DNA of 64,000 bases from Escherichia coli (GTDB lineage Bacteria > Pseudomonadota > Gammaproteobacteria > Enterobacterales > Enterobacteriaceae). Location of the stretch: the NCBI RefSeq assembly GCF_051903065.1, contig NZ_CP178438.1. One strand, written 5' to 3'. The stretch's first letter is position 1. Each line of letters starts with the position of its first letter. Position numbers and translations under genes: made by a program. Below are positions 6,930 to 51,233 of this stretch, piece by piece. Under the pieces are notes generated by a model that was not told where the DNA came from, did no database searches, and saw only the letters and a program-made list of their open reading frames with translations.

Positions 6930-7250
<321 letters not shown>

Positions 7251-7772: not shown

Positions 7773-7834
7773 TATCTGTATTCTGGTGCAACCATTCTGT
7801 TCTCACGACAATCGCCGTTTCAGAATACCGCCCA

Positions 7835-20736: not shown

Positions 20737-20904
20737 CTCTTGCCTTTAAAGCGGATGCTATTTATTTCGTATAAGTGCGCAGTGCTCATGCCGGATGCTG
20801 CATGAGCACTATATCCTTCCTGAAAATCGCGCAAATTCTATATATTGCAGAGATCATGTAGGCCTGATAAGCGAAGCGCATCAGGCAATGTTACAAAAAA
20901 AGCC

Positions 20905-20935
20905 ACGGTATAAACCGTGGCAAAATCCAACATAG
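20905..20935 (-). terminator. Rho-independent terminator downstream of allE
   Basis: On the minus strand GCCACGG-TTTATA-CCGTGGC followed by TTTTTTT. Confidence 0.6.
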
Positions 20936-21408
20936 CTAAAAATAATCAGGCGAGTGGTATGACTTAAATCTCTACGTCGCGGTTGCAATCTTTCGAGTAA
21001 ATATAGCTGAACGCTTCACCACGCCCTACGCCATAACCAGCCTGTAAAGAATAAGCGCCCATAAAGATGTAATCGCCTTTTTTCACCGGGATCCAGTTAT
21101 TGTCGAGGTTATAAACCCCCTGACCGGAAAGAATATAGGCACCGTGTTCCTGAACGTGTGTTTCGATATAACCATGGCTGGCACCTGGTGCAAAAGAGAG
21201 GATATGCATGTTCATATCAAAACCTAACTCTTTGGGCAGAAAATCCAGCAGGATCACATCATCCATACCTTCATAGTGAATGCGTTCCAGTTCGCTGGCA
21301 TTGCCAGAAACCAGCCACGGTGCATGGCCTTCTACCAGAACATAGCGGCGCTTGGTGATGCTGCCAACTTACTGATTTAGTGTATGATGGTGTTTTTGAG
21401 GTGCTCCA

Positions 21409-21684
21409 GTGGCTTCTGTTTCTATCAGCTGTCCCTCCTGTTCAGCTACTGACGGGGTGGTGCGTAACGGCAAAAGCACCGCCGGACATCAGCGCTATCT
21501 CTGCTCTCACTGCCGTAAAACATGGCAACTGCAGTTCACTTACACCGCTTCTCAACCCGGTACGCACCAGAAAATCATTGATATGGCCATGAATGGCGTT
21601 GGATGCCGGGCAACAGCCCGCATTATGGGCGTTGGCCTCAACACGATTTTACGTCACTTAAAAAACTCAGGCCGCAGTCGGTAA
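21409..21684 (+). CDS. insA: IS1 InsA
   Basis: 91-aa ORF with zinc-finger [14 protein letters not shown]...CSHC. Confidence 0.95.
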
Positions 21685-22106
21685 CCTCGCGCATACAGCC
21701 GGGCAGTGACGTCATCGTCTGCGCGGAAATGGACGAACAGTGGGGCTATGTCGGGGCTAAATCGCGCCAGCGCTGGCTGTTTTACGCGTATGACAGGCTC
21801 CGGAAGACGGTTGTTGCGCACGTATTCGGTGAACGCACTATGGCGACGCTGGGGCGTCTTATGAGCCTGCTGTCACCCTTTGACGTGGTGATATGGATGA
21901 CGGATGGCTGGCCGCTGTATGAATCCCGCCTGAAGGGAAAGCTGCACGTAATCAGCAAGCGATATACGCAGCGAATTGAGCGGCATAACCTGAATCTGAG
22001 GCAGCACCTGGCACGGCTGGGACGGAAGTCGCTGTCGTTCTCAAAATCGGTGGAGCTGCATGACAAAGTCATCGGGCATTATCTGAACATAAAACACTAT
22101 CAATAA
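21603..22106 (+). CDS. insB: IS1 InsB' (transposase made as InsAB' by -1 frameshift)
   Basis: 167-aa ORF overlapping insA in the -1 frame. Confidence 0.9.
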
Positions 22107-22536
22107 GTTGGAGTCATTACCGCGGCGCTTATATAAAAAGATTTGGCTGTCTTCGGCCTGGGCGTTAACAAACGTCATTAAGGAGCCTGGCGGGCAATAA
22201 AGATAGCCACCTTCGCTTAAGGCAAATGTTTTGCCTTCGGCTTTGGCAGTGATATTTCCAGAGATCACATACAGGAACGTTTCAATGCCTTCGCCACCGA
22301 AGCCCTGTTGGTTGCCACCGTTTTGATGCAGTGTGACCAGATAATCAACAAAAGAGGCACCCAGCTTTGGCGTGGAGAGGATTGTCGCGTCACAATTTTC
22401 AAAGCCCGGAATAATATTTTTTACCAGACCGTCTGGTGTTAACAGTGCGAAATTACCGTGTTTCACAATCGCACGGTTAGCCAGTAAATCATCGCGGTAA
22501 CCGGTGACGTTATTTAAATATCCCATTTATGACTCC

Positions 22537-24843: not shown

Positions 24844-25298
24844 CTGTCTTCCTTTTTAACGACGGTGTGAAGCATGACTGCAATTAACATACAGGGAAAA
24901 TATCTGGATTATGTGATCCAGACAGGCAAAAAAATATAGTTAGAATTTATTTGATAATCCGCTCGCTTTTAACCTGGTTTTTAAAACAACCACGCTTATT
25001 AAAAAATAACACGTAATAGCATGGCGGTTATTTGAATTCTTTTGTTAATAATCCCTGTGTGATATTCATCACCTTATTTACCCGTTGTCATCGATACCGT
25101 AATCGCCACATTAACACTGCTCGTGCAATTGCCATGGGTGCAATTTTTAAGGAGTTGTTATGATCCACGCCTTTATTAAAAAAGGGTGTTTTCAGGATTC
25201 GGTCAGTTTAATGATTATTTCACGAAAACTCAGCGAATCAGAAAATGTTGATGATGTTTCCGTAATGATGGGTACGCCCGCCAGGTAATGACTCCAAC

Positions 25299-25802
25299 TT
25301 ATTGATAGTGTTTTATGTTCAGATAATGCCCGATGACTTTGTCATGCAGCTCCACCGATTTTGAGAACGACAGCGACTTCCGTCCCAGCCGTGCCAGGTG
25401 CTGCCTCAGATTCAGGTTATGCCGCTCAATTCGCTGCGTATATCGCTTGCTGATTACGTGCAGCTTTCCCTTCAGGCGGGATTCATACAGCGGCCAGCCA
25501 TCCGTCATCCATATCACCACGTCAAAGGGTGACAGCAGGCTCATAAGACGCCCCAGCGTCGCCATAGTGCGTTCACCGAATACGTGCGCAACAACCGTCT
25601 TCCGGAGCCTGTCATACGCGTAAAACAGCCAGCGCTGGCGCGATTTAGCCCCGACATAGCCCCACTGTTCGTCCATTTCCGCGCAGACGATGACGTCACT
25701 GCCCGGCTGTATGCGCGAGGTTACCGACTGCGGCCTGAGTTTTTTAAGTGACGTAAAATCGTGTTGAGGCCAACGCCCATAATGCGGGCTGTTGCCCGGC
25801 AT
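25299..25802 (-). CDS. insB: IS1 InsB'
   Basis: Identical 167-aa protein to copy 1. Confidence 0.9.
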
Positions 25803-25996
25803 CCAACGCCATTCATGGCCATATCAATGATTTTCTGGTGCGTACCGGGTTGAGAAGCGGTGTAAGTGAACTGCAGTTGCCATGTTTTACGGCAGTGAGA
25901 GCAGAGATAGCGCTGATGTCCGGCGGTGCTTTTGCCGTTACGCACCACCCCGTCAGTAGCTGAACAGGAGGGACAGCTGATAGAAACAGAAGCCAC
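25721..25996 (-). CDS. insA: IS1 InsA
   Basis: Identical 91-aa protein to copy 1. Confidence 0.95.
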
Positions 25997-27613
25997 TGGA
26001 GCACCTCAAAAACACCATCATACACTAAATCAGTAAGTTGGCAGCATCACCCGCCCGCCAATAAAGCGTTATTAGATACCACAGGTTTCTGGCATGACGA
26101 TTTTAATAACGCCACGCCGAACGATATTTGCGTGGCAATTCGTAGCGAAGCGGCGGATGCGGGGATCGCGCAGGCGATTATGCAGCAGCTTGAAGAGGCG
26201 CTAAAACAACTGGCGCAGGGGTCAGGCAGCAGCCAGGCGTTGACGCAGGTGCGTCGCTGGGACAGTGCCTGTCAGAAATTACCCGATGTCAATCTGGCGC
26301 TGATTTCAGTGGCTGGCGAGTATGCGGCGGAGCTGGCGAATCAGGCGCTGGATCGCAACCTCAACGTGATGATGTTCTCCGATAACGTCACGCTGGAAGA
26401 TGAAATCCAACTTAAAACCCGCGCGCGGGAAAAAGGCTTGCTGGTGATGGGGCCGGACTGCGGTACGTCGATGATTGCCGGCACGCCGCTGGCTTTTGCT
26501 AACGTGATGCCGGAAGGCAACATTGGCGTCATTGGCGCTTCCGGTACCGGGATTCAGGAGCTGTGTTCGCAGATTGCGCTGGCAGGGGAGGGAATTACTC
26601 ACGCGATTGGCCTTGGCGGCCGCGACCTCAGCCGTGAAGTGGGCGGCATCAGTGCGCTGACGGCGCTGGAGATGCTCAGTGCAGACGAGAAAAGCGAAGT
26701 GCTGGCATTTGTTTCAAAACCACCTGCCGAAGCGGTGCTTCTGAAAATTGTTAATGCCATGAAAGCAACCGGCAAACCGACGGTGGCGCTGTTTTTAGGT
26801 TATACCCCGGCGGTGGCCCGCGACGAGAATGTCTGGTTTGCCTCCTCGCTGGATGAGGCCGCACGCCTGGCTTGCCTGCTTTCACGCGTTACGGCGCGAC
26901 GTAACGCGATAACGCCTGCCAGCAGCGGATTTATTTGCGGTTTGTATACCGGCGGTACGCTGGCTGCCGAAGCGGCGGGATTACTTGCCGGACACCTTGG
27001 CGTGGAAGCCGATGATGCCCATCATCACGGCATGATGCTCGACGCCGATGGTCACCAGATTATTGACCTCGGCGATGATTTCTACACCGTCGGGCGTCCC
27101 CATCCGATGATCGACCCAACCTTACGCAACCAGTTAATTGCCGATCTCGGCGCTAAACCGTCAGTGCGCGTATTGCTACTTGATGTCGTGATTGGCTTCG
27201 GCGCGACCGCCGATCCTGCCGCCTCGCTGGTAAGCGCCTGGCAAAAAGCCTGTGCTGCGCGTTCAGACAATCAACCACTGTATGCCATTGCCACGGTGAC
27301 AGGCACTGAACGTGACCCGCAATGCCGCTCGCAGCAAATCGCCACGCTGGAAGATGCGGGGATTGCGGTCGTGAGTTCGCTACCGGAAGCCACCTTGCTG
27401 GCGGCAGCGTTAATTCATCCGCTCTCGCCTGCCGCACAGCAACACACACCGTCATTACTGGAAAACGTCGCCGTGATTAACATCGGATTACGCAGTTTTG
27501 CGCTGGAGCTACAAAGCGCCAGCAAACCGGTTGTGCATTACCAATGGTCGCCAGTCGCCGGCGGCAATAAAAAACTGGCTCGTTTATTAGAACGTTTGCA
27601 ATAAGGGGTTCCC

Positions 27614-36942: not shown

Positions 36943-37412
36943 CAGAGAGAGGATTCCATCTGTTACGTAGGTCGAAGGGGATGCGCCTATTTTGTCAGAA
37001 GCGGGGCGCGCTGTCAGGTTTCGTTTCAGATTTATCGCGTGAAGCGACCTCTTGCGAAGGTGAGGCGCACTGTCGCTGAGATTGAAAGCTTCATTTTTCG
37101 TCCATGATGGCGTTGTAAATCTGGAACTGACTTATTTCCTTGTCAAAGGATTAAGATAATTTAAGAAATACCTGACAATATAAAAAGAATTTTCAGCCTG
37201 GTAATTTACCGCTTCAGGTCTATATTTGTGTTGAATATATTTTGCGCGGAAGTATTCATCTAACGGGGCTCTCTATTTTTTAGAATAGAGTGCATATTTT
37301 CAATTAAGACATTCTTAGAGGATAAAAAGGAATTTACTACTATCAGTGTCTTAAATAAAGTAATCGGTTATATACGGATATGGAGTCGATAAATGAGATT
37401 GAAGGAATATAT

Positions 37413-37955
37413 ATGAAATTAAGATTTATTTCGTCTGCGCTGGCTGCCGCACTATTCGCCGCTACGGGTAGTTATGCTGCCGTTGTAGATGGCGGTACAA
37501 TTCACTTTGAAGGCGAACTGGTGAATGCTGCCTGTTCAGTGAATACTGACTCGGCAGACCAGGTTGTCACACTCGGTCAATATCGTACCGATATTTTCAA
37601 TGCTGTTGGTAATACCTCTGCATTAATTCCATTCACCATTCAGTTGAACGACTGCGATCCTGTTGTTGCCGCTAATGCTGCCGTTGCATTTTCTGGTCAG
37701 GCTGATGCAATCAATGATAATTTATTGGCCATTGCATCCAGTACCAATACAACAACAGCAACGGGTGTCGGTATTGAAATACTTGATAATACATCCGCAA
37801 TTCTCAAACCTGATGGGAATAGCTTCTCAACCAACCAGAACTTGATCCCCGGGACCAACGTTCTTCATTTTTCTGCACGTTATAAAGGCACCGGTACAAG
37901 TGCATCAGCAGGGCAAGCAAATGCTGACGCGACTTTTATTATGAGATACGAATAA
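37413..37955 (+). CDS. sfmA: Type 1-like fimbrial major subunit
   Basis: Start at [14 protein letters not shown] (signal peptide) gives 180 aa; AT-rich upstream region. Confidence 0.85.
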
Positions 37956-38174
37956 TCAAAACCACGTTGTTTTGAATTATATATCACGTCTTATAACAAA
38001 GTAATGTACCGGTTGTCTGAAGCGGTATGGTGGCAATGTAAATCGAAATCATGTTCACTTTGTATCATGCCGCTTTATTAAATGAAAAGGGAATGATGTG
38101 TTGTAAGAAACCAAAGCAATTATTTCTTTATATTTCTTATTTTTGCCGTCAGGAATACACAAGGCGTATTAACT

Positions 38175-38867
38175 ATGATGACTAAAATAAAGTTATTGAT
38201 GCTCATTATATTTTATTTAATCATTTCGGCCAGCGTCCATGCTGCCGGAGGGATCGCATTAGGTGCCACGCGTATTATTTATCCCGCTGATGCTAAACAG
38301 ACTGCGGTATGGATTAGAAATAGCCATACCAATGAGCGTTTTCTGGTCAATTCGTGGATTGAAAACAGCAGCGGTGTAAAAGAAAAGTCATTCATCATTA
38401 CACCGCCACTATTTGTTAGTGAACCCAAAAGCGAAAATACTTTGCGTATTATTTACACCGGTCCACCGCTGGCGGCAGATCGTGAGTCTCTGTTCTGGAT
38501 GAATGTTAAGACGATCCCTTCGGTAGATAAAAATGCATTGAACGGCAGGAATGTTTTGCAACTGGCGATTTTATCGCGCATGAAATTATTTCTCCGTCCA
38601 ATTCAATTACAAGAATTACCCGCAGAAGCGCCGGACACACTCAAGTTTTCGCGATCCGGTAACTATATCAATGTTCATAATCCATCACCTTTTTATGTCA
38701 CCCTGGTTAACTTACAAGTGGGCAGCCAAAAGTTGGGGAATGCTATGGCTGCACCCAGAGTTAATTCACAAATTCCCTTACCCTCAGGAGTGCAGGGAAA
38801 GCTGAAATTTCAGACCGTTAATGATTATGGTTCAGTAACCCCGGTCAGAGAAGTGAACTTAAACTAA
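38175..38867 (+). CDS. sfmC: Periplasmic pilus chaperone (PapD-like)
   Basis: 230-aa ORF with signal peptide. Confidence 0.9.
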
Positions 38868-38897
38868 CCGAATCATCTGACAATATCAGAGCTAATT

Positions 38898-41507
38898 ATG
38901 AAAATACCCACTACTACGGATATTCCGCAGAGGTATACCTGGTGTCTGGCCGGAATTTGTTATTCATCTCTTGCCATTTTACCCTCCTTTTTAAGCTATG
39001 CGGAAAGTTATTTCAACTCGGCATTTTTATTAGAGAATGGCACATCCGTTGCTGATTTATCGCGCTTTGAGAGAGGTAATCATCAACCTGCGGGCGTGTA
39101 TCGGGTAGATCTCTGGCGTAATGATGAGTTCATTGGTTCACAGGATATCGTATTTGAATCGACAACAGAAAATACAGGTGATAAATCAGGTGGGTTAATG
39201 CCCTGTTTTAACCAGGTACTCCTTGAACGAATTGGCCTTAATAGCAGTGCATTTCCCGAGTTAGCCCAGCAGCAAAACAATAAATGCATCAATTTACTGA
39301 AAGCTGTACCTGATGCCACAATTAACTTTGATTTTGCAGCGATGCGCCTGAACATCACTATTCCTCAGATAGCGTTGTTGAGTAGCGCTCACGGTTACAT
39401 TCCGCCTGAAGAGTGGGATGAAGGTATTCCTGCTTTACTCCTGAATTATAATTTCACCGGTAACAGAGGTAATGGTAACGATAGCTATTTTTTTAGTGAG
39501 CTCAGCGGGATTAATATTGGCCCGTGGCGTTTACGCAACAATGGTTCCTGGAACTATTTTCGCGGAAATGGATATCATTCAGAACAGTGGAATAATATTG
39601 GCACCTGGGTACAGCGCGCCATTATTCCGCTGAAAAGTGAACTGATAATGGGAGACGGCAATACAGGAAGTGATATTTTCGATGGTGTTGGATTTCGTGG
39701 TGTACGGCTTTATTCTTCCGATAATATGTATCCAGATAGCCAGCAAGGGTTTGCCCCAACGGTACGTGGGATTGCCCGTACGGCGGCCCAGCTAACGATT
39801 CGGCAAAATGGTTTTATTATCTATCAAAGCTATGTTTCCCCCGGTGCTTTTGAAATTACTGATTTGCACCCGACATCTTCAAATGGCGATCTGGATGTCA
39901 CCATCGACGAGCGCGATGGCAATCAGCAGAATTACACAATTCCGTATTCAACAGTGCCGATTTTACAACGCGAAGGGCGTTTCAAATTTGACCTGACGGC
40001 GGGCGATTTTCGTAGCGGTAATAGTCAGCAATCATCGCCTTTCTTTTTTCAGGGCACGGCACTCGGCGGTTTACCACAGGAATTTACTGCCTACGGCGGG
40101 ACGCAATTATCTGCCAATTACACCGCCTTTTTATTAGGGCTGGGGCGCAACCTCGGGAACTGGGGCGCAGTGTCGCTGGATGTGACCCATGCGCGCAGCC
40201 AGTTAGCCGACGACAGTCGTCATGAGGGGGATTCTATTCGCTTCCTCTATGCGAAATCGATGAACACCTTCGGCACCAATTTTCAGTTAATGGGTTACCG
40301 CTATTCGACACAAGGTTTTTATACCCTTGATGATGTTGCGTATCGTCGAATGGAGGGGTACGAATATGATTACGATTATGACGGTGAGCATCGCGATGAA
40401 CCGATAATCGTGAATTACCACAATTTACGCTTTAGCCGTAAAGACCGTTTGCAGTTAAATATTTCACAATCACTTAATGACTTTGGCTCGCTTTATATTT
40501 CTGGTACCCATCAAAAATACTGGAATACTTCGGATTCAGATACGTGGTATCAGGTGGGGTATACCAGCAGCTGGGTTGGCATCAGTTATTCGCTCTCATT
40601 TTCGTGGAATGAATCTGTAGGGATCCCCGATAACGAACGTATTGTCGGACTTAATGTTTCAGTGCCTTTCAATGTTTTGACCAAACGTCGCTACACCCGG
40701 GAAAATGCGCTCGACCGCGCTTATGCCTCCTTTAACGCCAACCGTAACAGCAACGGGCAAAATAGCTGGCTGGCAGGTGTAGGTGGGACCTTACTGGAAG
40801 GCCACAACCTGAGTTATCACGTAAGCCAGGGTGATACCTCGAATAATGGGTATACGGGCAGCGCCACGGCAAACTGGCAGGCCGCTTACGGTACGCTGGG
40901 GGTCGGGTATAACTACGACCGCGATCAACATGACGTTAACTGGCAGCTGTCTGGCGGTGTGGTCGGACATGAAAATGGCATAACGCTGAGCCAGCCTTTA
41001 GGGGATACCAATGTTTTGATTAAAGCGCCTGGCGCAGGCGGTGTACGCATTGAAAATCAAACTGGCATTTTAACCGACTGGCGCGGCTATGCGGTGATGC
41101 CGTATGCCACGGTTTATCGGTATAACCGTATCGCGCTTGATACCAATACGATGGGGAATTCCATCGATGTTGAAAAAAATATTAGCAGCGTTGTGCCGAC
41201 GCAAGGCGCGTTGGTTCGTGCCAATTTTGATACCCGCATAGGCGTGCGGGCGCTCATTACCGTTACCCAGGGCGGAAAACCGGTGCTGTTTGGATCACTG
41301 GTACGGGAAAACAGTACCGGAATAACCAGTATGGTGGGTGATGACGGGCAAGTTTATTTAAGTGGTGCGCCATTGTCTGGTGAATTACTGGTTCAGTGGG
41401 GAGACGGCGCGAACTCACGCTGCATTGCGCACTATGTATTGCCGAAGCAAAGCTTACAGCAAGCCGTCACTGTTATTTCGGCAGTTTGCACACATTCTGG
41501 CTCATAA
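38898..41507 (+). CDS. sfmD: Fimbrial outer-membrane usher
   Basis: 869-aa usher-type ORF. Confidence 0.9.
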
Positions 41508-41519
41508 AGGAAATTATCA

Positions 41520-42527
41520 ATGAAGATAATCTGCAGATTATTATTGGCGATGGCATGTTTGTGTCTGGCAAACATATCCTGGGCTACTGTTTGTGCAAAT
41601 AGTACTGGCGTAGCAGAAGATGAACACTATGATCTCTCAAATGTCTTTAATAGCACCAATAACCAGCCAGGGCAGATTGTTGTTTTACCGGAAAAATCCG
41701 GCTGGGTAGGTGTGTCAGCAATTTGCCCACCCGGCACGCTGGTGAATTATACATACCGTAGTTATGTCACCAACTTTATTGTTCAGGAAACTATCGATAA
41801 TTATAAATATATGCAATTAAATGATTATCTATTAGGTGCGATGAGTCTGGTTGATAGCGTGATGGATATTCAATTTCCCCCGCAAAATTATATTCGTATG
41901 GGAACAGATCCTAACGTTTCGCAAAACCTTCCGTTCGGGGTGATGGATTCTCGTTTGATATTTCGTTTAAAGGTTATTCGGCCCTTTATTAACATGGTGG
42001 AGATCCCCAGACAGGTGATGTTTACCGTGTATGTGACATCAACGCCTTACGATCCGTTGGTTACACCTGTTTATACCATTAGTTTTGGTGGCCGGGTTGA
42101 AGTACCGCAAAACTGCGAATTAAATGCCGGGCAGATTGTTGAATTTGATTTTGGTGATATCGGCGCATCGTTATTTAGTGCGGCAGGGCCGGGTAATCGA
42201 CCTGCTGGTGTCATGCCGCAAACCAAGAGCATTGCGGTCAAATGTACGAATGTTGCTGCGCAGGCTTATTTAACAATGCGTCTGGAAGCCAGTGCCGTTT
42301 CTGGTCAGGCGATGGTGTCGTACAATCAGGATTTAGGTTTTATTGTCGCCGATCAGAACGATACGCCGATCACGCCTAACGATCTCAATAGCGTTATTCC
42401 TTTCCGTCTGGATGCAACTGCGGCAGCCAATGTCACACTTCGCGCCTGGCCTATCAGTATTACCGGTCAAAAACCGACCGAGGGGCCGTTTAGCGCGCTG
42501 GGGTATTTACGCGTCGATTATCAATGA
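41520..42527 (+). CDS. sfmH: FimH-like fimbrial tip adhesin
   Basis: 335-aa ORF with signal peptide. Confidence 0.85.
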   Translation: MKIICRLLLAMACLCLANISWATVCANSTGVAEDEHYDLSNVFNSTNNQPGQIVVLPEKSGWVGVSAICPPGTLVNYTYRSYVTNFIVQETIDNYKYMQLNDYLLGAMSLVDSVMDIQFPPQNYIRMGTDPNVSQNLPFGVMDSRLIFRLKVIRPFINMVEIPRQVMFTVYVTSTPYDPLVTPVYTISFGGRVEVPQNCELNAGQIVEFDFGDIGASLFSAAGPGNRPAGVMPQTKSIAVKCTNVAAQAYLTMRLEASAVSGQAMVSYNQDLGFIVADQNDTPITPNDLNSVIPFRLDATAAANVTLRAWPISITGQKPTEGPFSALGYLRVDYQ

Positions 42528-42537
42528 GGTACGGAGA

Positions 42538-43053
42538 ATGAGAAGAGTACTCTTTAGCTGTTTCTGCGGGCTACTGTGGAGTTCCAGTGGATGGGCAGTT
42601 GACCCTTTAGGAACGATTAATATCAATTTGCACGGTAACGTTGTTGATTTCTCCTGTACCGTAAACACAGCGGATATTGATAAGACGGTAGATTTAGGCA
42701 GATGGCCTACGACACAACTACTGAACGCTGGCGATACCACGGCACTCGTCCCTTTTAGCCTGCGGCTGGAGGGATGTCCTCCGGGTTCAGTTGCGATTTT
42801 ATTTACGGGAACACCGGCATCTGATGTCAACCTGCTGGCTCTGGATGATCCCGCAATGGCACAAACCGTCGCCATCGAATTACGTAATAGCGATCGCTCC
42901 CGGCTCGCACTGGGGGAGGCGAGCCCGACTGAGGAAGTAGATGCAAATGGCAATGTCACACTAAACTTTTTTGCCAATTATCGAGCGTTAGCCAGCGGTG
43001 TTCGGCCAGGTGTGGCGAAAGCGGATGCGATATTTATGATCAATTATAATTAA
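42538..43053 (+). CDS. sfmF: Fimbrial minor subunit
   Basis: Track ORF starts 42343; start at MRRVLFSCF with SD GGAG gives 171 aa. Confidence 0.85.
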   Translation: MRRVLFSCFCGLLWSSSGWAVDPLGTININLHGNVVDFSCTVNTADIDKTVDLGRWPTTQLLNAGDTTALVPFSLRLEGCPPGSVAILFTGTPASDVNLLALDDPAMAQTVAIELRNSDRSRLALGEASPTEEVDANGNVTLNFFANYRALASGVRPGVAKADAIFMINYN

Positions 43054-43055
43054 TA

Positions 43056-43688
43056 TTATATTAATTCGTATAATTTGGCGTAGTCGATAAGCTCTACAAT
43101 TGAATGCAAACCTAGCTTGCCATAAATATTAGATTTATGCGCACTAACTGTTTTATTGCTAAGTAATAACTTATCGGCAATTTCTTTATTAGATAATCCG
43201 CTGACCAGATAACGTAATATCGTCACTTCACGATTAGATAGCACAGTGATCGTTGAACTATTCGTACTACATTTATTGCTTTTTATATAGTTGAGCGTTT
43301 CGCTGGGAAAAAAAGTGTATCCGGAGAGGATCATCTGAACGGCATGAAAAATATCATTCTGATCATTGCATTTACTGACAAAACCGTTAGCACCAGCTTG
43401 TATCGCTCTGCCAGCATAAAAGCATTCTGATTTCGATGATAAAAATAACACTTTCACTGTGCTCTGGATTTGTTTGATCCTTTTCAGGAAGGTAAAACCG
43501 TCTGTTCCGGGCAAGTCTATATCCATAATGATTAAATCAACAGGACGGGTTCGGAGATAATCGATGGTTATGCGGTAATCATCCGTTTTCAGGACAATCT
43601 GCAATTCACTGTTTTTTTGCAACAGAACTTCAATAGACATTCTGATGATAGGATGAGTATCCATAATGATCACCGACGTTGGTTTCAT
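43056..43688 (-). CDS. fimZ: LuxR/FixJ-family response regulator FimZ
   Basis: Receiver domain plus C-terminal LuxR helix-turn-helix; start at MKPTSVIIMD gives 210 aa. Confidence 0.9.
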   Translation of the reverse strand: MKPTSVIIMDTHPIIRMSIEVLLQKNSELQIVLKTDDYRITIDYLRTRPVDLIIMDIDLPGTDGFTFLKRIKQIQSTVKVLFLSSKSECFYAGRAIQAGANGFVSKCNDQNDIFHAVQMILSGYTFFPSETLNYIKSNKCSTNSSTITVLSNREVTILRYLVSGLSNKEIADKLLLSNKTVSAHKSNIYGKLGLHSIVELIDYAKLYELI

Positions 43689-43930
43689 AGTTACCAGTCT
43701 CATAGGAGCGGACAATTTTCCGTTAGGGCGGTAAATTGTACTTTGATACATGAAAATACGGGTTTTCTTGATTCAGACGCGCAGCGGTGTGCGTTTGTTT
43801 GCCGCTATAGCGAAATAAATCAGAAAATCAGACGCGGTCGTTCACTTGTTCAGCAACCAGATCAAAAGCCATTGACTCAGCAAGGGTTGACCGTATAATT
43901 CACGCGATTACACCGCATTGCGGTATCAAC

Positions 43931-44007
43931 GCGCCCTTAGCTCAGTTGGATAGAGCAACGACCTTCTAAGTCGTGGGCCGCAGGTTCGAATCCTGCAGGG
44001 CGCGCCA
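43931..44007 (+). tRNA. argU: tRNA-Arg (anticodon UCU, reads AGA)
   Basis: GCGCCCTTAGCTCAGTTGGATAGAGCAACGACCTTCTAAGTCGTGGGCCGCAGGTTCGAATCCTGCAGGGCGCGCCA; cloverleaf with TCT anticodon and 3' CCA. Confidence 0.95.
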
Positions 44008-44052
44008 TTTCTTCTTCATTTATGCCCGTCTTATCCGTTTCCGCTTTGCCCT

Positions 44053-44814
44053 TCACCACATCACTTTTTGTCGCTGTTTGGCGAGATAATTCAACGGTGT
44101 CAGGCCGTAAAACGCCTTAAAAACAGAGATAAAGTACGACGTGCTGCTATAGCCACATAATTGCGCCACCTGAGTGATATTTTTGTTATCCATCAATAAC
44201 ATCTGTACGGCGTAACGCATACGACACTCTGTGACAATCTGGCTATAGCTGGTATTTTCGTTTTTTAATTTCTTTTTGAGCAGGCTGGGGCTTAAACATA
44301 GCGAACTGGCGACAATTCGCAGATTCCAGTAATGCTGAATATCGCTTTGAATAATGCGGCAGACGCTGTCGCGGACGCTGCTGCGTAAGATATACATCAG
44401 TAGGGCAATAAACCGCGATTGCTCAAGAAAGTTAGACAATACGGTAAAAAGCAATGCGCGTGTCAACTCCGCTTCGCAGGGTTTGCTGGGTTGCTGCTTG
44501 CTGTGGTTGGCGGCTAGCCGGAACACTTCCGGTGTACGGCTATGACAAGCGATAACCGGGGTAGCCAGCCGCGACCAGGGCTTTACACAGGTTAAGTTCT
44601 TATTTAAAAACAACAGATAATCGTTGATGATGTTACGGTTGATGTGGGTGATTAATACGTGATTTAACGTTGAGAGTTCAATGACGTTATTGTTGCACGC
44701 GAAGGCGGCCAGGTAGTTTTTCGGAAGGGTAAACGTAGCATGGTTATTGACGCTTACCTCTACCTCTTTTTCGGTCAGGATCACCACGCAAGGTTCACTG
44801 CTGCTCAATTGCAT
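44053..44814 (-). CDS. envY: AraC-family transcriptional regulator EnvY
   Basis: 253-aa ORF with C-terminal AraC helix-turn-helix. Confidence 0.85.
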   Translation of the reverse strand: MQLSSSEPCVVILTEKEVEVSVNNHATFTLPKNYLAAFACNNNVIELSTLNHVLITHINRNIINDYLLFLNKNLTCVKPWSRLATPVIACHSRTPEVFRLAANHSKQQPSKPCEAELTRALLFTVLSNFLEQSRFIALLMYILRSSVRDSVCRIIQSDIQHYWNLRIVASSLCLSPSLLKKKLKNENTSYSQIVTECRMRYAVQMLLMDNKNITQVAQLCGYSSTSYFISVFKAFYGLTPLNYLAKQRQKVMW

Positions 44815-44996
44815 TTCGCACTCCTCAGATATCAGAAACTCCGCTCAAAGGATCTATGCTTCCTGCATGAGTGATCGGCCCGTTCGCCGATAACGATCTT
44901 CTTTCTTTAGCACGCTTTTTAGCAATTAATCTTGATGGAATTCTGACGAGAGCGAAAGAGGTAAGCCAGGTCGTACCCGACTTACCTGGAGGAGAT

Positions 44997-45887
44997 TTAA
45001 TACTCGAGAATGCCGTGCGCGACGGGCAAATAGCGCAGAGAGAAATAGAGAGTGTCTTTACCGCAAGAGGAACGTTTCGCTAACAGCGAGGCAATTTCTG
45101 CGTCCGGTTTCGGTTTCGCTGTAAAGGTTTTGCCTTTGCCGGCGACAAACAGTTCATAAACAATGCCGCTTGCTGGGGCGGAGCTTTGGCAATCGGCGCT
45201 GGCCTGTAGATAACGTTCACGCTGTTCAGCGGTAAGTTTATCCACGCCGCTGCCATCCTGTACCCAGACATTAACGCCGGTTGCTTTAACGTGTTCCAGC
45301 AGTTGGCGATAGCCATCTGGCGACATGTTTCCGGCGAAAAAACTACTGATATAAACCGGTTTTGCTGAAACATCGCTAATCAGCCGCTGCGCGTTGTTTA
45401 ACCATGTTAGCAAAGGCTGACGGGCGGCTTCGCTGCGCCAGTTCAGGTCGTCAATTTCCGCGCTGATGTACCAGCCATCCGGCGTTACGCCAGGTACGGC
45501 ACTCCATAATCTGGCTTGCTGGAGATCGGCAGCCAGCAGGCGGTTAAGATAGCTTTCCAGCGCTGCGGACGACTGTTTCTGGTGCATAAAAAATTCCGGA
45601 TCGGCGTTCAACCCGACAATCAGCTTCAGGCCAGCCTGTTGCGCAGCTGCGGCGCGCTTAAACAATAACGTGCGCTGTTCTGGCTGGGTAAATGCATCGC
45701 CGTAACGAGTCCATTGCAAAACCAGGGTATCGAAGCCTTGCAAACGTAACTGACTCATCAGCCCCTGCCACTGGGTATCGGTAACCTGACTATCGCGGTT
45801 TTGTGGTTGCCAGATAATACCTTTCATCGCAAAGGAAAAAGGGCTGACCAAAAGCAGTGTCAGCAATACGAAAATGAACTTACGCAT
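44997..45887 (-). CDS. ybcH: Periplasmic protein YbcH (DUF4434)
   Basis: 296-aa ORF with signal peptide immediately downstream of nfrA. Confidence 0.85.
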   Translation of the reverse strand: MRKFIFVLLTLLLVSPFSFAMKGIIWQPQNRDSQVTDTQWQGLMSQLRLQGFDTLVLQWTRYGDAFTQPEQRTLLFKRAAAAQQAGLKLIVGLNADPEFFMHQKQSSAALESYLNRLLAADLQQARLWSAVPGVTPDGWYISAEIDDLNWRSEAARQPLLTWLNNAQRLISDVSAKPVYISSFFAGNMSPDGYRQLLEHVKATGVNVWVQDGSGVDKLTAEQRERYLQASADCQSSAPASGIVYELFVAGKGKTFTAKPKPDAEIASLLAKRSSCGKDTLYFSLRYLPVAHGILEY

Positions 45888-48860
45888 TTACCAGTGCACT
45901 CCAATGGTGAGAAACGCGTTGTTGCGCTCTCCGTTACGTTGATTAATCGCCTTAAAGGTATGTTGATACTCGACGCCGAGACTGACTTTGTGCGGCCAGG
46001 CGTCGTAGTGCGTCTCGCCGGTCCAAATATTCCAGCGGACCCCGACACCGCCAAGCTGCGCGCCCTGAGTGCCTTTATCACGATAGCCGTTGTCCTGAAC
46101 GTGAGCGTAAGGCTCAATAGTCTGTCCGTTAGCTACCTTCTGATGCCAGCTGACGCGATAATCTGCCGTCCACGCCTGAATATCCTGGCGGATATATTGC
46201 GCCGCATCGAGGTACAGGTTTTGGGCAAACCAGCCTGAACCGTTCGGGTGCCATTCGTCGCTGTATTTGCCGCCATTAAAGAATGAGGCGCTGGCGCGCA
46301 GCATGGTATCGGATGCGCCATTTTGCCCGTTCAGCGGCAACTGCTGTTCGACGGCGAGGAAAAAGATCTGATCGCGCAGCGGCTTCCAGCGTAGACCGGT
46401 GCCGGACATCGGATTTTTCACCGGCATCATCACCCCGTTTTCTCCGGTATCGGCAAAGACGCGGCTATAAACTGAGAGCAGGTCGCCTTCCAGCAGCATA
46501 TTGCGTCCGATGCGGTATTCGGCTTCCAGTTGCCCGTAGCTACGATAGCTTTTCCCTGGCGCTGCGCCGCCGACATTATTGTTAGCGGTACTCATTGCGC
46601 CGGAACGCAAGCCGATAGAAGAATCGAAACTGAACGTCCAGCGGCGACCGACCTCCTCATGCAAACGGCGGAAATTGAAGCGTTGTTGATTTTGCTCTGG
46701 CGTCAATGGGGTTATCAGCGCCTGATTATCAATGTCATCAATCACCAGCCGGGTGTAGTGCTGCGTCGCAGGCATGTCATCCAGACGCTGGTTCACATAG
46801 GCCAGTTGTCGGATCAGTGCCGGATCGTCCGGAAGCCCTTTATGCGCCTGTTCGAGCATTTCCCGCGACTGTGCGATATCACCGCTATCCCACAAGGCGT
46901 AACCAAGCGCTGCCTGGGTGTTGCTATTATTCGGTTCCAGTTCCAGCGCGGCGCGCAAATCACTCACCGCGGCCGGGACATTATGACGTTGGCGATAAAT
47001 TGTCGCCCGCGCAACGTAAGCGTTGGCAGAAGGCGCAATATTGATTGAGCGCGTGAGATCGTTCAGTGCGAGTTCCGGCTGACCAGGAATGTAACGTTGC
47101 GCATGCAGCCACCAGTAGAGGGCATTGCTTCCCAGTCCACGTTGTTCTGCCTGTTGTAGCCAGCGATCGCGAGCCGCACCATTTCCTGCCGCCTGGGCGG
47201 TATTGGCAGCAGCAAGCAGATCCTCATTGCTCATGTCGTGAAGACTGATTTTCTGCCAGGCCGCCAGTGCGGTGGCGTAGTCCTCAACCTGATACGCCTG
47301 ATAGGCTACCGCACGATGTTGCCAGGCGTTCGGTTGTCGTTGTTCGGCCTGAAGCCATGCATACAACGCCACACCGGGTAGCGTGTCCCGATAACACTTT
47401 GCCAGACGGTTCCAGGCGGCGGCATCGTAGGAAGGCGACATATCGCCCAGCAAGCGAACTATTGCCGGGCAATTATCTGCAATACCCGGCAACTGACTTT
47501 GCCACTGACGTTGCTCCGCCAGCGGTAAGGGTTTCGATAAAATCGCCACCTTCGCCGGCGTTGCCAGGTAAGGATGACTTTCCAGCAGAGACGCCAGTCG
47601 CGCCATTAAAGTCTGGCTGATACGCGCATCGCCCTGGAAAGGATAGCGTTGCAGCAATAAATCGGCAGCTTCCCGTGACTGCTCGTTCTGCATCAGTTGC
47701 CAGGTTAGTTGATCCAGGCGGGTAAGATTTGCCGGTTCTTGCTGATACAGCAAGCGTGCCAGACGCAGAGCTTCAGCCTTGTTACGGGTCGCCACGCTGA
47801 CAGCATAACGCTCCTCAAGCATTTCATTGGCGGGGAGGGTGGCGAGCAGTTTTTGCGCTGCGTCGTACTGACCTTCTTTTAACAGCACCGGTAGCGTCGC
47901 GCCAACAACATACTGGCGGTTATCGGCAAACTGCACCGTATAATTCGCCAATGCCTGAACGGGGTTGGCGCTGTATTTAGATAACAGATAGAGCCAACTT
48001 TTCTCTTGTGCGTCCGTGGTAAACAGCGGCTTATTTTCAATGAGATAATGCTGGAGGCGTGCTTTTTCGCCACGATAAGCCAGCGCGGTCGCGTAAGTAA
48101 TATATGACTGAGGATCGGTGAAGATCCCCTGTGATTGCAGTGCCAGGATCCGATCGTCCAGCTGCCCGGCAAGAAGCACGTCAAACCACTGACGGCGTTC
48201 TGCCGCGCTTAATGTGTTCTGCTGGCGTGCTTCATTGTATAGCGTATCTGCCTGGGACCATTGTTTCAGGTAGATTGCCCGTTGCAGCAGATCGGTTCGC
48301 AGCGTTTTTCCTTCCGGCGATGCAGCAAACGTCGCATCGTTCAGTTGCGCTCTGGCGACAGGTAACTGTGCCAGCCGCAGGGCATTCTGCCCGACTTCAC
48401 TGCGACAACGCAGGGTCGGCGCAGCATCGCACGCTTTTTGCTGGGCAAGCAGTTCTTCAACTGTCGTAACGCTTTTCACTTCAACTGGAATAGCCGCCAG
48501 ACTGCGCTCAAGTCGGGCATCTCCTGGGTGACGTTTCAGTTGATCCTCAAGCAACAGCCGCGCCCGGTCATCATGACCAAAATGGCGATAGGCTTCCGCA
48601 AGGTATAAAGTCAGCGGAATATTATCCGGCACCTGCTGGTGTATATATTCAAATTCGCGGATGGCGGTTGCTTCGTCGTTATTTTTCTGTGCCTTCAGCG
48701 CCTTATCGAGACGGGGATAAATAACAAAATGGCGATAATCGCTCAGCCCCAGCTCTTCTGCGCTGGTGCCGATATTGTCTGCGAGTGCGCTGGTACTCAA
48801 TAAAGACGTCAGCAGTAAACCAGACCATCCGATGACGCGATTAAGGTTATTCTCCTTCAT
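45888..48860 (-). CDS. nfrA: Phage N4 adsorption protein A (outer-membrane TPR/beta-barrel)
   Basis: Start at MKENNLNRVIGW gives 990 aa; overlaps nfrB stop. Confidence 0.9.
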   Translation of the reverse strand: MKENNLNRVIGWSGLLLTSLLSTSALADNIGTSAEELGLSDYRHFVIYPRLDKALKAQKNNDEATAIREFEYIHQQVPDNIPLTLYLAEAYRHFGHDDRARLLLEDQLKRHPGDARLERSLAAIPVEVKSVTTVEELLAQQKACDAAPTLRCRSEVGQNALRLAQLPVARAQLNDATFAASPEGKTLRTDLLQRAIYLKQWSQADTLYNEARQQNTLSAAERRQWFDVLLAGQLDDRILALQSQGIFTDPQSYITYATALAYRGEKARLQHYLIENKPLFTTDAQEKSWLYLLSKYSANPVQALANYTVQFADNRQYVVGATLPVLLKEGQYDAAQKLLATLPANEMLEERYAVSVATRNKAEALRLARLLYQQEPANLTRLDQLTWQLMQNEQSREAADLLLQRYPFQGDARISQTLMARLASLLESHPYLATPAKVAILSKPLPLAEQRQWQSQLPGIADNCPAIVRLLGDMSPSYDAAAWNRLAKCYRDTLPGVALYAWLQAEQRQPNAWQHRAVAYQAYQVEDYATALAAWQKISLHDMSNEDLLAAANTAQAAGNGAARDRWLQQAEQRGLGSNALYWWLHAQRYIPGQPELALNDLTRSINIAPSANAYVARATIYRQRHNVPAAVSDLRAALELEPNNSNTQAALGYALWDSGDIAQSREMLEQAHKGLPDDPALIRQLAYVNQRLDDMPATQHYTRLVIDDIDNQALITPLTPEQNQQRFNFRRLHEEVGRRWTFSFDSSIGLRSGAMSTANNNVGGAAPGKSYRSYGQLEAEYRIGRNMLLEGDLLSVYSRVFADTGENGVMMPVKNPMSGTGLRWKPLRDQIFFLAVEQQLPLNGQNGASDTMLRASASFFNGGKYSDEWHPNGSGWFAQNLYLDAAQYIRQDIQAWTADYRVSWHQKVANGQTIEPYAHVQDNGYRDKGTQGAQLGGVGVRWNIWTGETHYDAWPHKVSLGVEYQHTFKAINQRNGERNNAFLTIGVHW

Positions 48861-51084
48861 TTTCGGACTCCAGTTGCGCAACCTGTTCTGTGTTTAAACC
48901 TGCTTTGAGTAATAGTGATTGCATCGAAACTTGTAATTCGCGTTGAATTGTCAGGACGCGATCCAACGTTTCCTGGCTGATAACGCCTTCGGTGACCAAA
49001 AACTTGCCGAGCGGCAGAGAACTGCGTTCATGGCGCAATAACAACACGTTAATTGCTGAACGATTAATATGACCGAGCGTGGTCAGTATTTCGGCGAACA
49101 GGAACTGATGCGGCACATATTGCCGCCAGATTTCACCGGCCTGCTGTTCCGTGAGCCACTGATGCTGAACCGCATTGTACAACATTGCCCGCGGATCGTG
49201 ACCGCGTCGGCGCGCATACCAGTGGCGTAACCCCGTGACAATTTGTCCCCGCAGAACAATGACGTAACGCACTTTGCGTCCGACTTTACGCGTCAGGGCC
49301 GCCAGCGAAACCGGGTCAATACCATCTTCACTGCCGACAATTAACACATCATTTTCCAGACGCAGCGGCAGCACTGCATAATGCAGCGCCACGGAGGCTG
49401 GCATTTCGGCAATCAGCGAGGACGGGATCTGCCAGGCATCGATGGATTCCCACGCCACGCCGTTTTGCTCTGCCAGCGCCTGTGCCAGCTGCTCGGCGCT
49501 AATCAGCCCCTGCATCAGCATTGAACCGCCCAGGCGTAGACCTTCGACGCGATTACGCAGTGCTGTATCGAGTTGTTCTTCAGTGATGACCTGATTTTCC
49601 AGCAGAATTTGACCTAACGGGCGCAACGAGCGGGTATCGCCAGTCACGCTGGGGAAGTCATGCGTTGTTTTATCCCACGCGACGCGACGTGGATCGCCGT
49701 GTTGAAGTACCTGTTTTAACGCGCGCCAGTTGGCCATGAAGTTAATCAGGTTGCCCCAGAAAAGACGCAGGACGGAAAGCAGCCCCTGCGTCAGGCCGTA
49801 GTAGCCAGTAACGAAAATCACCCGCTGCACGATGCGGTTAACCATCAAACCAAAGTTTAGCCACAGCAGGGTCATTAACCATGCGCTGCCGCTGAAAATA
49901 GAAAGGAAATGCCAGGCATCGGGCCACAAACTTTCATACGCCAGCAACAGCAAAAGCTGGATCATCACCAGCATCGCGAGGAAGCTGACAAAGTTACTGA
50001 TTGCCCCTTTGCGGTCGCGCCAGAGAAAGTAGTTCAGCGTCAGGCTGGAGGTCCATTTATGGGTTTTAAAGCCCTGGAAAACAATGCCGATGATCCAGCG
50101 GGATTTTTGTCGAACCGCAGTCGAAAAGGTATCGGGGAAATATTCGCGCACGCAGATCATGTTTGACGTCCGTGCGTGCTGTAAAAATTTACGCTGCTCG
50201 CGTTCTTTGGCTTCGTCCACCACCGGAAAACGGACAAAAATTTCCGTCATACCTTTTTCTTTCAGGCGGAAGCCAATGTCGTAATCTTCAGTCAGACTCT
50301 GCACGTCGAAAGCAATACCGTCACCGTCAGCTAACAGAGCGGTCACGGCGCGGCGGCTGAAACAGGTGCCGACGCCTGCGCTGGGCACTTGTCCGGCGAG
50401 GGCTTCACGCACCGGAACATCTTTGCCATGCAGCTCTGAAAACTCATCAATGTAAGTCATGCTGGTGAAGTGCGTCCATTCGCGTTCAAACGGATACACC
50501 GGGATCTGAATCAGATCTTTACGCTCGACCAGATAGTTGAACAGACGCAATTCCATCGGTGAAATCACATCTTCGGCGTCATGCAGAATAAAACCAGCAA
50601 AAGCGAAATTGGCGCTACGCTCAAACTGGGTGATGGCGTCCAGCACGTTGTTCAGACAGTCGGCTTTGCTGGTGGGGCCAGGACGCGCGCAGACTACCTT
50701 ATGCACATTCGGGAAGCGAGCGCACACTTCGTCAACATCACGCTGAGTATCGGGGTCGTTGGGATAGGTGCCAACAAAGATATGATAGTTTTCGTAGTCG
50801 AGCGTGGTCGCCGCCAGCTCGGCCATATTGCCGATGACGCCCGTTTCATTCCACGCCGGAACCATAATCGCTAACGGTTTTTCATCTGGTTTATACAGTT
50901 CGCGGTAACTCATTCGCGGGTAGCGGCGATAAACACTCAACTTGCGTTTAATGCGGCGTACCCAGTAGACGACATCAATAAAAAAATCGTCCAGCCCGCT
51001 GATGAACATGATGACCGCTAACGTTATCGCGATTACTTTTAAGCCGTAGAGCCAGGTAGCAAAAACATCAAGAAGCCAGTCCAC
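48847..51084 (-). CDS. nfrB: Phage N4 adsorption protein B (family-2 glycosyltransferase with C-terminal c-di-GMP-binding domain)
   Basis: 745-aa ORF: N-terminal TM region, GT2 core (DAED), C-terminal MshEN-like region. Confidence 0.9.
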   Translation of the reverse strand: MDWLLDVFATWLYGLKVIAITLAVIMFISGLDDFFIDVVYWVRRIKRKLSVYRRYPRMSYRELYKPDEKPLAIMVPAWNETGVIGNMAELAATTLDYENYHIFVGTYPNDPDTQRDVDEVCARFPNVHKVVCARPGPTSKADCLNNVLDAITQFERSANFAFAGFILHDAEDVISPMELRLFNYLVERKDLIQIPVYPFEREWTHFTSMTYIDEFSELHGKDVPVREALAGQVPSAGVGTCFSRRAVTALLADGDGIAFDVQSLTEDYDIGFRLKEKGMTEIFVRFPVVDEAKEREQRKFLQHARTSNMICVREYFPDTFSTAVRQKSRWIIGIVFQGFKTHKWTSSLTLNYFLWRDRKGAISNFVSFLAMLVMIQLLLLLAYESLWPDAWHFLSIFSGSAWLMTLLWLNFGLMVNRIVQRVIFVTGYYGLTQGLLSVLRLFWGNLINFMANWRALKQVLQHGDPRRVAWDKTTHDFPSVTGDTRSLRPLGQILLENQVITEEQLDTALRNRVEGLRLGGSMLMQGLISAEQLAQALAEQNGVAWESIDAWQIPSSLIAEMPASVALHYAVLPLRLENDVLIVGSEDGIDPVSLAALTRKVGRKVRYVIVLRGQIVTGLRHWYARRRGHDPRAMLYNAVQHQWLTEQQAGEIWRQYVPHQFLFAEILTTLGHINRSAINVLLLRHERSSLPLGKFLVTEGVISQETLDRVLTIQRELQVSMQSLLLKAGLNTEQVAQLESENEGE

Positions 51085-51233
51085 ACAAAAACCTTACATT
51101 AACGCTGGTTATGTTTAGGGTGGCGTATATTAAGGTTTTTTATGAATTGTGACAGCTTTTTACCATTAATAGGTATGACTATTGCGGCACGTTATTTTTA
51201 CACTGGTTATAAAAGTTGCCGTTTGCTGAAGGA

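Follow-up and report, generated by a model that had tools for sequence, protein, structure and literature searches.

The closest described relative of the locus analysed here is the NfrB-NfrA-YbcH system of E. coli K-12 (Junkermeier & Hengge 2021, PMC8669469; Sellner et al. 2021, PMC8669472), which occupies the same position between cusS and envY. Sensitivity to phage N4 needs c-di-GMP from the co-localised cyclase DgcJ rather than from the global pool, and additionally WecB (PMC8669469, PMC8669472); the prediction of an earlier note on this DNA, that the strain is N4-sensitive when c-di-GMP is available, is therefore too simple.

The Bcs cellulose synthase system resembles Nfr in its general design. 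Both have a processive GT2 enzyme with the D, D, D, QxxRW signature, allosteric release by c-di-GMP from a cyclase that is dedicated to the synthase and co-localised with it (DgcC for BcsA, DgcJ for NfrB), an exporter that combines TPRs with a porin, and a hydrolase in the periplasm, putative in the case of YbcH. The two systems differ in their c-di-GMP receptor: BcsA uses PilZ, NfrB uses MshEN. The hydrolases differ as well: BcsZ is a GH8 (α/α)6 enzyme, in contrast to the (β/α)8 barrel predicted for YbcH. Bcs is dispensable for N4 infection. In the poly-β-1,6-GlcNAc system PgaABCD, the c-di-GMP sensor is the interface between PgaC and PgaD, while NfrB uses MshEN; PgaB has a deacetylase domain which YbcH lacks, and the substrate is UDP-GlcNAc, as opposed to the inferred UDP-ManNAc for Nfr.

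The MshEN domain links NfrB to the secretion ATPases MshE, PilB, and PilF, which have the same tandem 24-residue motifs. NfrB residues 487-623 aligned to solved MshEN domains with E values of 1e-5 to 1e-16, and a search of solved structures with the NfrB sequence gave matches to this part only. However, NfrB has MshEN at its C-terminus, joined to a glycosyltransferase, while it is N-terminal to the ATPase in MshE, PilB, and PilF, and NfrB has an extra motif pair (residues 665-714) beyond the arrangement found in these ATPases.

Gene content and conservation of the nfrBA-ybcH locus

The window, i.e. the whole stretch of 64,000 nt that was analysed, carries envY, ybcH, nfrA, and nfrB on its minus strand (Table 1). 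The interval from 44053 to 51084 extends exactly from the stop of envY to the start of nfrB, and all 7,032 nt match two E. coli chromosomes with 100% identity; at this length and identity, chance is no concern. All four genes are full length and show no internal stops or frameshifts. The identities that the earlier note had assigned to the genes were confirmed by the open reading frames, by RefSeq annotation, and by NCBIfam equivalogs for NfrB, NfrA, and YbcH. Its claim that all of them are intact holds for four out of four reading frames, but nfrB carries a rare E580V substitution. The domain search that it had suggested placed GT2, MshEN, and TPR all above curated cut-offs, and neither frameshifts nor lost catalytic residues were seen: every residue experimentally implicated in NfrB is kept (D169, D267, W330, L490, G491, G519, L537).

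Table 1. Positions of the genes, domains, and further features of the nfrBA-ybcH region in the window.
Feature	Position	Strand	Details
envY	44053-44814	minus	253 aa; ORF list and RefSeq annotation of identical chromosome segment
13-bp hairpin	44959-44987	minus	right after ybcH stop; without clear U-run; RNAfold -19.1 kcal/mol
ybcH	44997-45887	minus	296 aa; ORF list and RefSeq annotation of identical segment
nfrA	45888-48860	minus	990 aa, ATG start; ORF list and RefSeq annotation
NfrA_C domain	45930-46436	minus	residues 809-977; PF13283 E = 9.7e-68; presumed outer-membrane pore
NfrA signal peptide	48780-48860	minus	residues 1-27, ...STSALA|DN; read from sequence
nfrB	48847-51084	minus	745 aa, GTG start; ORF list and RefSeq annotation
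NfrB second MshE-type c-di-GMP motif pair	48943-49092	minus	residues ~665-714; first half degenerate, second half well-formed; PLGKFLVTEGVISQETLDRVLTIQ
NfrB MshEN domain	49201-49626	minus	residues ~487-628; PF05157 and NF053729
nfrB codon 580	49345-49347	minus	encodes Val; K-12, UTI89, and six sampled E. coli strains have Glu
NfrB GT2 domain	49939-50877	minus	residues 70-382; PF13632 E = 2e-40, PF13641 E = 3e-35
nfrB upstream intergenic (promoter) region	51085-51233	minus	149/149 nt identical to MG1655

The gene order and the 149 nt upstream of nfrB are the same as in K-12. The proteins share 99.4-99.9% identity with their K-12 counterparts (with 1, 6, 4, and 1 amino acid differences from MG1655 in NfrB, NfrA, YbcH, and EnvY, respectively), and all mutationally defined residues are kept. 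The surroundings of envY differ: in K-12, the 21-kb prophage DLP12, which carries appY and ompT, is inserted at argU beside envY, whereas the argU-envY junction is uninterrupted in the window. The locus is carried by ~93% of 5,426 complete E. coli genomes (nfrB by 5,092). It is an already known, ordinary core-genome locus of E. coli, and the description of it as a known rather than novel system was correct, this being the published NfrBA-YbcH system. The segment 44997-51084 (minus strand) is almost certainly an intact nfrB-nfrA-ybcH operon encoding a synthase-dependent pathway for an exopolysaccharide, the N4 glycan receptor (NGR).

An intact nfrBA-ybcH operon is one necessary determinant of susceptibility to NGR-targeting N4-like, Vequintavirinae, and phi92-like phages (PMC8669472), and its state is relevant to the prediction of phage host range. 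The dgcJ and wecB genes are located outside the window and are annotated as intact in the near-identical genome NZ_AP045789.1, which serves as a proxy and differs from the window in one SNP and in carrying an IS903B copy. Also outside the window are pdeL and the loci for O-antigen and capsule.

The genes of the operon are tightly packed. The last 14 nt of nfrB already belong to nfrA and begin with its ATG (ATGAAGGAGAATAA), an overlap identical to that reported for K-12 (PMC8669469), and the TAA of nfrA directly abuts the ATG of ybcH (TAAATG), in agreement with the coupling geometry that had been proposed. The order nfrB-nfrA-ybcH is the one by which the operon was defined (PMC8669469), and the tight coupling fits co-translation of NfrB, NfrA, and YbcH from one mRNA. 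Upstream of nfrB, a generic scan of the 149-nt region found no convincing sigma-70 consensus, and the best match to a sigma-28 promoter (TAAAGTTT-N10-12-GCCGATAA) in the same region reached 10/16, a score that was equalled by 322 out of 500 shuffles. As there is no recognisable sigma-28 promoter upstream of nfrB, the FliA dependence reported for the nfrBA-ybcH operon may be indirect.

Synthase, exporter, and proposed mechanism

NfrB matched NF008411, the NCBIfam equivalog for the cyclic di-GMP-activated glycosyltransferase NfrB, with 1332.6 bits (cut-off 1170) over model positions 1-722 of 723. The GT2 signatures D169 (DxD region), TED265-267, and QKSRW326-330 are present and nearly invariant in 35 homologs; the motif residues concerned (D169, TED265-267, and QxxRW326-330) were defined by mutagenesis (PMC8669469). 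The MshEN domain scored 52.3 bits against PF05157 (cut-off 23.1) and 66.4 bits against NF053729 (cut-off 38), and contains two tandem 24-residue c-di-GMP motifs at residues 489-512 and 517-540, within which L490, G491, G519, and L537 are present. The domain matches (PF13632/PF13641 and PF05157) corroborate the view that nfrB encodes a membrane GT2 glycosyltransferase with a C-terminal nucleotide-binding domain. In addition, the isolated C-terminal 126 aa of NfrB, scored on their own, reached 45.8 bits against NF053729 (cut-off 38), and the key positions of the second motif pair in this region are conserved in homologs. This pair is not discussed in the two founding papers (PMC8669469, PMC8669472).

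NfrA, the N4 adsorption protein and outer-membrane exporter, matched the equivalog NF007302 with 1892 bits (cut-off 1223) and showed the Pfam domains TPR_19, TPR_14, and NfrA_C (PF13283), in line with its earlier description as a TPR outer-membrane protein. A classical signal sequence was reported for NfrA (PMC8669469), and the pore role of its C-terminal domain is taken from the same literature (PMC8669469, PMC8669472). The protein ends in ...IGVHW, and the terminal residue is thus aromatic (W). Searching solved structures with the NfrA sequence gave generic TPR matches only.

The mechanism outlined here draws for c-di-GMP binding, for the dependence on DgcJ and WecB, and for the N4 phenotype on the K-12 and UTI89 literature only. 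NfrB, established in K-12 as an inner-membrane processive GT2 synthase, would have the same function in this strain and would be switched on by binding of c-di-GMP to its C-terminal MshEN domain. The c-di-GMP would be supplied locally by DgcJ, a cyclase physically associated with NfrB, and to a minor extent by DgcQ as a backup, and NfrB would polymerise UDP-ManNAc provided by WecB, the epimerase of the ECA pathway. NfrA, with its signal peptide, TPR repeats, and C-terminal outer-membrane pore domain, would then export the polymer, while YbcH, as a putative clan GH-A-type hydrolase, may trim or process it in the periplasm in a role like that of BcsZ or the C-terminal domain of PgaB. Phage N4 would bind to the glycan first and to NfrA second.

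The putative hydrolase YbcH

YbcH matched NF007404 with 521.6 bits (cut-off 344) and PF14488 (DUF4434) with an E value of 2.9e-69. Its export features are a hydrophobic N-terminus, an invariant A20, and a small residue at -3 in 51 out of 53 homologs. The structural model of YbcH is confident and shows a (β/α)8 barrel of the glycoside-hydrolase type, in which the glutamates on β4 (E144) and β7 (E245) are invariant; a barrel of this type with conserved carboxylates on β4 and β7 is a clan GH-A-like trait, which YbcH shares according to the model. Foldseek returned a mix of glycoside hydrolases and generic TIM barrels, a sequence search of solved structures gave no match, and nothing related was found in the literature on DUF4434. 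The earlier label of YbcH as a periplasmic partner is right in that this is an exported DUF4434 protein, but it undersells a protein with a glycoside-hydrolase fold in the model: going by this fold, YbcH probably processes the polymer as an enzyme and is more than a passive partner.

The alternative is that YbcH is a non-catalytic periplasmic scaffold and that its glycoside hydrolase-like fold is vestigial. YbcH has indeed been called a putative scaffold; N4 can infect without it, and the motility phenotype depends on it only in part (PMC8669469). A hydrolase role would fit this dispensable and auxiliary phenotype as well. The scaffold reading also draws on the lack of a sequence match to any solved enzyme and on the absence of the clan GH-A N-E-P motif around E144, where the sequence reads SAEIDD. 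I consider a non-catalytic scaffold unlikely, although this reading retains appreciable weight.

A more specific and joint proposal is that YbcH is an active clan GH-A-type hydrolase, with E144 as acid/base and E245 as nucleophile, which is probably freed from the membrane by signal peptidase cleavage after the invariant A20 and processes the ManNAc-based NGR polymer, and that the motif pair at NfrB residues 665-714 aids c-di-GMP sensing or DgcJ docking. I put this forward tentatively, as its parts taken together fall somewhat short of an even chance. If true, the YbcH hydrolase and the second NfrB motif pair would be traits of the whole Nfr family and not of one strain. The YbcH fold, the likely signal-peptidase site, and the second motif pair would be modest refinements of the published Nfr system.

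The adjoining envY gene and the valine-580 allele of nfrB

The earlier note had counted envY as part of the module, which was not supported by its distribution. EnvY has the Pfam domains HTH_AraC and HTH_18 of an AraC-family regulator, and its gene is present in 4,170 out of 5,426 genomes, as compared to 5,092 for nfrB; at least 922 genomes with nfrB lack envY. EnvY is known as a thermoregulator of porins, and nfrB has been reported to be expressed about 2-fold more strongly at 37 °C than at 28 °C. This could suggest that envY belongs functionally to the module as its fourth member, for example as a temperature-responsive regulator dedicated to nfrBA-ybcH that is co-transcribed with it or controls it. 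The envY gene has the same orientation and starts only 182 nt downstream of ybcH, and a terminator scan called no canonical intrinsic terminator in this gap, the 13-bp hairpin included, so that read-through is possible.

Nevertheless, this hairpin is strong and directly follows the ybcH stop, and the genomes that carry nfrB without envY include UTI89, from which envY is wholly absent and which is N4-sensitive in an Nfr- and WecB-dependent manner (PMC8669472). The founding paper defined the operon as nfrBA-ybcH and mentions envY zero times (PMC8669469), and a published neighbourhood analysis of NfrB homologs found WecB-like, GGDEF, and acetyltransferase genes and no AraC regulator. No link between envY and nfr was found in the literature, where the only study, made in the context of ompT, treats envY as an insertion that varies among strains and has an effect on ompT expression. 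A functional role of envY in the system is accordingly very unlikely, and envY is an independently variable AraC-type regulator gene that adjoins the operon and stands outside the machine.

The single difference between this NfrB and that of K-12 is E580V, and the exact 41-mer with V580 is present in 43 out of 5,426 genomes. Since column 580 is hypervariable among the 35 NfrB homologs (T11, R6, V3, S3, A3, E1), the substitution is probably neutral. The V580 allele would thus behave like K-12 NfrB, although DgcJ-mediated activation and the binding of c-di-GMP, with a Kd of about 1 µM, were described only for the K-12 protein with E580 (PMC8669469). That a substitution in MshEN alters the module through c-di-GMP affinity or DgcJ docking, resulting in a phage-escape or attenuated allele, would be in line with the rarity of V580, with the loss of a charge within the Pfam MshEN envelope (residues 542-628), and with the natural occurrence of loss-of-function nfrB alleles (W11* in strain FCI5, and those of B strains reported in PMC8669472), but it is highly improbable, as position 580 lies outside both 24-residue binding motifs (489-540), V occurs there in two homologs other than the query and E in a single one, and its counterpart in the solved MshEN domains of PilB and PilF is T, R, or G. 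The 43 carriers of V580 were moreover isolated from many hosts, among them human, cattle, deer, otter, mink, and frog, which shows that this allele persists in natural strains.

The nfr locus and its integrity

Two sources, a mechanical ORF list and the RefSeq gene calls for a chromosome segment of identical sequence in E. coli 23CRST027, placed envY-ybcH-nfrA-nfrB in exactly the interval that the earlier note had given, 44053-51084. The start codon of nfrA lies within the final bases of nfrB (ATGAAGGAGAATAA), producing an overlap of 14 nt that is identical to the one reported for K-12 (PMC8669469), while the nfrA stop codon directly abuts the ybcH start (TAAATG) and a gap of 182 nt separates ybcH from envY. 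The locus is flanked by argU/fimZ/sfm on one side and cusSR on the other, as in K-12. The 7,032-nt segment was found at 100% identity in two complete E. coli genomes, and as a query it had matches in 5,319 of 5,426 complete genomes, with at least 80% of its length at one place in 5,052.

Features of the nfr region and its surroundings (window positions; the four protein-coding genes of the nfr region as in the ORF list and the RefSeq annotation of the identical segment)
Feature	Position	Strand	Product	Domains or remarks
envY	44053-44814	minus	253 aa	AraC-type HTH
ybcH	44997-45887	minus	296 aa	DUF4434; equivalog NF007404
nfrA	45888-48860	minus	990 aa, ATG start	TPR, NfrA_C; equivalog NF007302, 1892 bits (cut-off 1223)
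nfrB	48847-51084	minus	745 aa, GTG start	GT2 (PF13632, PF13641), MshEN (PF05157); equivalog NF008411, 1332.6 bits (cut-off 1170)
predicted second MshE-type c-di-GMP motif pair	48943-49092		NfrB residues ~665-714	
YbcH N-terminus	45828-45887		YbcH residues 1-20	
argU	43931-44007		tRNA-Arg(UCU)	
unoccupied att site	43931-44052			
IS1, two copies	21354-22121, 25284-26051			inverted orientation
naRNA4, twice	7005-7183			Rfam
ES036	6959-7001, 20823-20865			Rfam
AgrB	7685-7773			Rfam; near dinQ
STnc480	20891-20957			Rfam
sfm operon	37400-43700			fimbrial

All four proteins had the length of their K-12 MG1655 counterparts and zero internal stops, and differed from them by one (NfrB, E580V), six (NfrA), four (YbcH) and one (EnvY) amino acids. 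The domains predicted from the sequence were borne out by Pfam and NCBIfam above their curated cut-offs. Mutagenesis has identified NfrB residues that are needed for infection by phage N4, namely D169, D267 and W330 in the glycosyltransferase and L490, G491 and L537 in the c-di-GMP-binding MshEN domain (PMC8669469), and likewise G519 (PMC8669472). NfrB of the window carries the complete set, and the claim that the module is intact stood up to a check for frameshifts and missing catalytic residues because every one of these residues is present. The locus is the published, already known NfrBA-YbcH system, just as had been recognised.

Regulation, N4 sensitivity and the place of envY

In K-12, NfrB(414-745) has an affinity for c-di-GMP of ~1 µM (Kd; PMC8669469), and the cyclase DgcJ, on which N4 infection specifically depends, physically contacts NfrB (PMC8669469, PMC8669472). 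Infection calls on a single component of the ECA pathway, the UDP-GlcNAc 2-epimerase WecB, and this implies that the polymer is based on ManNAc; the TPR protein NfrA serves as the exporter in the outer membrane and makes the secondary contact with the phage, and infection proceeds without YbcH (PMC8669469, PMC8669472). The prediction of N4 sensitivity "when c-di-GMP is available" was imprecisely worded, as the published data describe local, DgcJ-derived signalling and not a global pool (PMC8669472). dgcJ, dgcQ, wecB, pdeL and the surface-polysaccharide loci all lie outside the window. dgcJ (496 aa) and wecB (376 aa) are annotated as intact in NZ_AP045789.1, a near-identical genome used as a proxy and not the window's own, which differs from the window between 38 and 57 kb by one SNP and by an IS903B copy that the window lacks.

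The operon has been reported as a FliA-dependent class 3 unit with post-exponential expression (PMC8669469). The 149 nt upstream of nfrB (51085-51233) are identical to K-12, and the same regulation is therefore expected. I found no convincing sigma-28 consensus in these 149 nt, where the best match (10/16) was equalled in 322 of 500 shuffles, nor was a strong sigma-70 consensus recognised there. Judging from the sequence, FliA may act indirectly, or the operon may have an atypical promoter.

envY had been counted as part of the module, which is contradicted by its distribution, by strain UTI89 and by the literature: envY is no part of the Nfr module. It was detectable in 4,170 of the 5,426 genomes and nfrB in 5,092, so that at least 922 nfrB-positive genomes do without envY. 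UTI89 has the order ompT-ybcH-nfrA-nfrB with the envY DNA wholly missing, and it is N4-sensitive in dependence on WecB and c-di-GMP (PMC8669472). The operon paper nowhere mentions envY, and its survey of NfrB-homolog neighbourhoods lists WecB-like, GGDEF and acetyltransferase genes, with AraC regulators not reported (PMC8669469). According to an independent study, the stretch between ybcH and ompT holds envY as a variable insertion, whose occurrence is correlated with the expression of ompT. Transcripts of ybcH may nevertheless read through into envY, since the strong 13-bp hairpin 3' of the ybcH stop has no U-run and the terminator scan called no intrinsic terminator between the two genes.

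Predicted refinements in NfrB and YbcH

Residue 580 of NfrB is E in K-12, in UTI89 and in six sampled, phylogenetically spread alleles, and the exact 41-mer centred on the window's Val580 codon occurred in only 43 of 5,426 genomes. Among 35 aligned homologs from a 1.8-billion-protein representative library, however rare V may be in the species, the column holds T (11), R (6), V, S and A (3 each) and others, with E just once. The position aligns to T, R or G in the solved MshEN domains of PilB and PilF, and lies there outside both 24-residue c-di-GMP binding motifs. With the site unconstrained and outside the motifs, E580V is probably neutral.

As a separate observation, nfrB of E. coli FCI5 (NZ_CM172810.1, 2327365-2329602) has a premature stop, W11*, for which RefSeq annotates a shortened ORF. 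This was one of six randomly sampled alleles, so natural loss of nfrB function is not rare, in agreement with a remark in PMC8669472.

The final 126 residues of NfrB alone scored 45.8 bits (cut-off 38) against the NCBIfam model of the MshE-type c-di-GMP motif, which points to a second motif pair. Within its 691-714 motif (PLGKFLVTEGVISQETLDRVLTIQ), G693, L696 and Q714 are conserved in 30, 33 and 26 of the 35 homologs. The pair is identical in K-12 and therefore a trait of the Nfr family rather than of this strain. Neither of the founding papers takes it up (PMC8669469, PMC8669472), one of them labelling part of the NfrB C-terminus a "domain of unknown function"; the predicted pair would be a modest, testable refinement.

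YbcH has been termed a scaffold or auxiliary protein (PMC8669469). Its AlphaFold2 model was confident (pLDDT 92.9, pTM 0.90), with eight β-strands alternating with helices, and Foldseek returned mixed TIM-barrel matches in the PDB. In an alignment of 53 sequences (lowest identity 42%), the residues invariant throughout included two glutamates, E144 in strand β4 and E245 where β7 ends, together with Q58, W59, D96, D146, D147, W150, R151, Q210, R285 and Y286, the majority of which sit at strand ends or just beyond. A Glu on β4 and another on β7 are the typical arrangement of clan GH-A ("4/7") enzymes. The fold and the conserved glutamates suggest that YbcH would act as a periplasmic polymer-processing hydrolase of the Nfr system, a role likened to that of BcsZ or of the PgaB C-terminal domain. 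[quoted passage not shown] The published description, by contrast, has YbcH uncleaved and anchored in the membrane, for lack of such a site (PMC8669469). These observations on YbcH are modest, testable refinements of a known system.

The argU junction and neighbouring loci

argU lies 45 nt from the envY stop, and the sequence that follows it matches the right-hand junction of the K-12 prophage DLP12, so the att site is unoccupied. The argU locus here lacks DLP12, appY and ompT, which take up 21 kb in K-12; of the 5,426 complete genomes, about 2,537 had an uninterrupted argU-envY junction. Elsewhere in the window, the two IS1 copies flank allC-allD in the allantoin cluster, and the annotation of a near-identical genome has allE and fdrA truncated at these insertions. 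The Rfam families naRNA4, ES036, AgrB and STnc480 scored above the gathering score (Table), and in or adjoining the nfr region no family did besides tRNA. PGAP names genes of the sfm operon (sfmA/C/D/H/F in K-12) fimA/fimC/fimH in the identical reference genome, which is an annotation inconsistency and not a biological difference.
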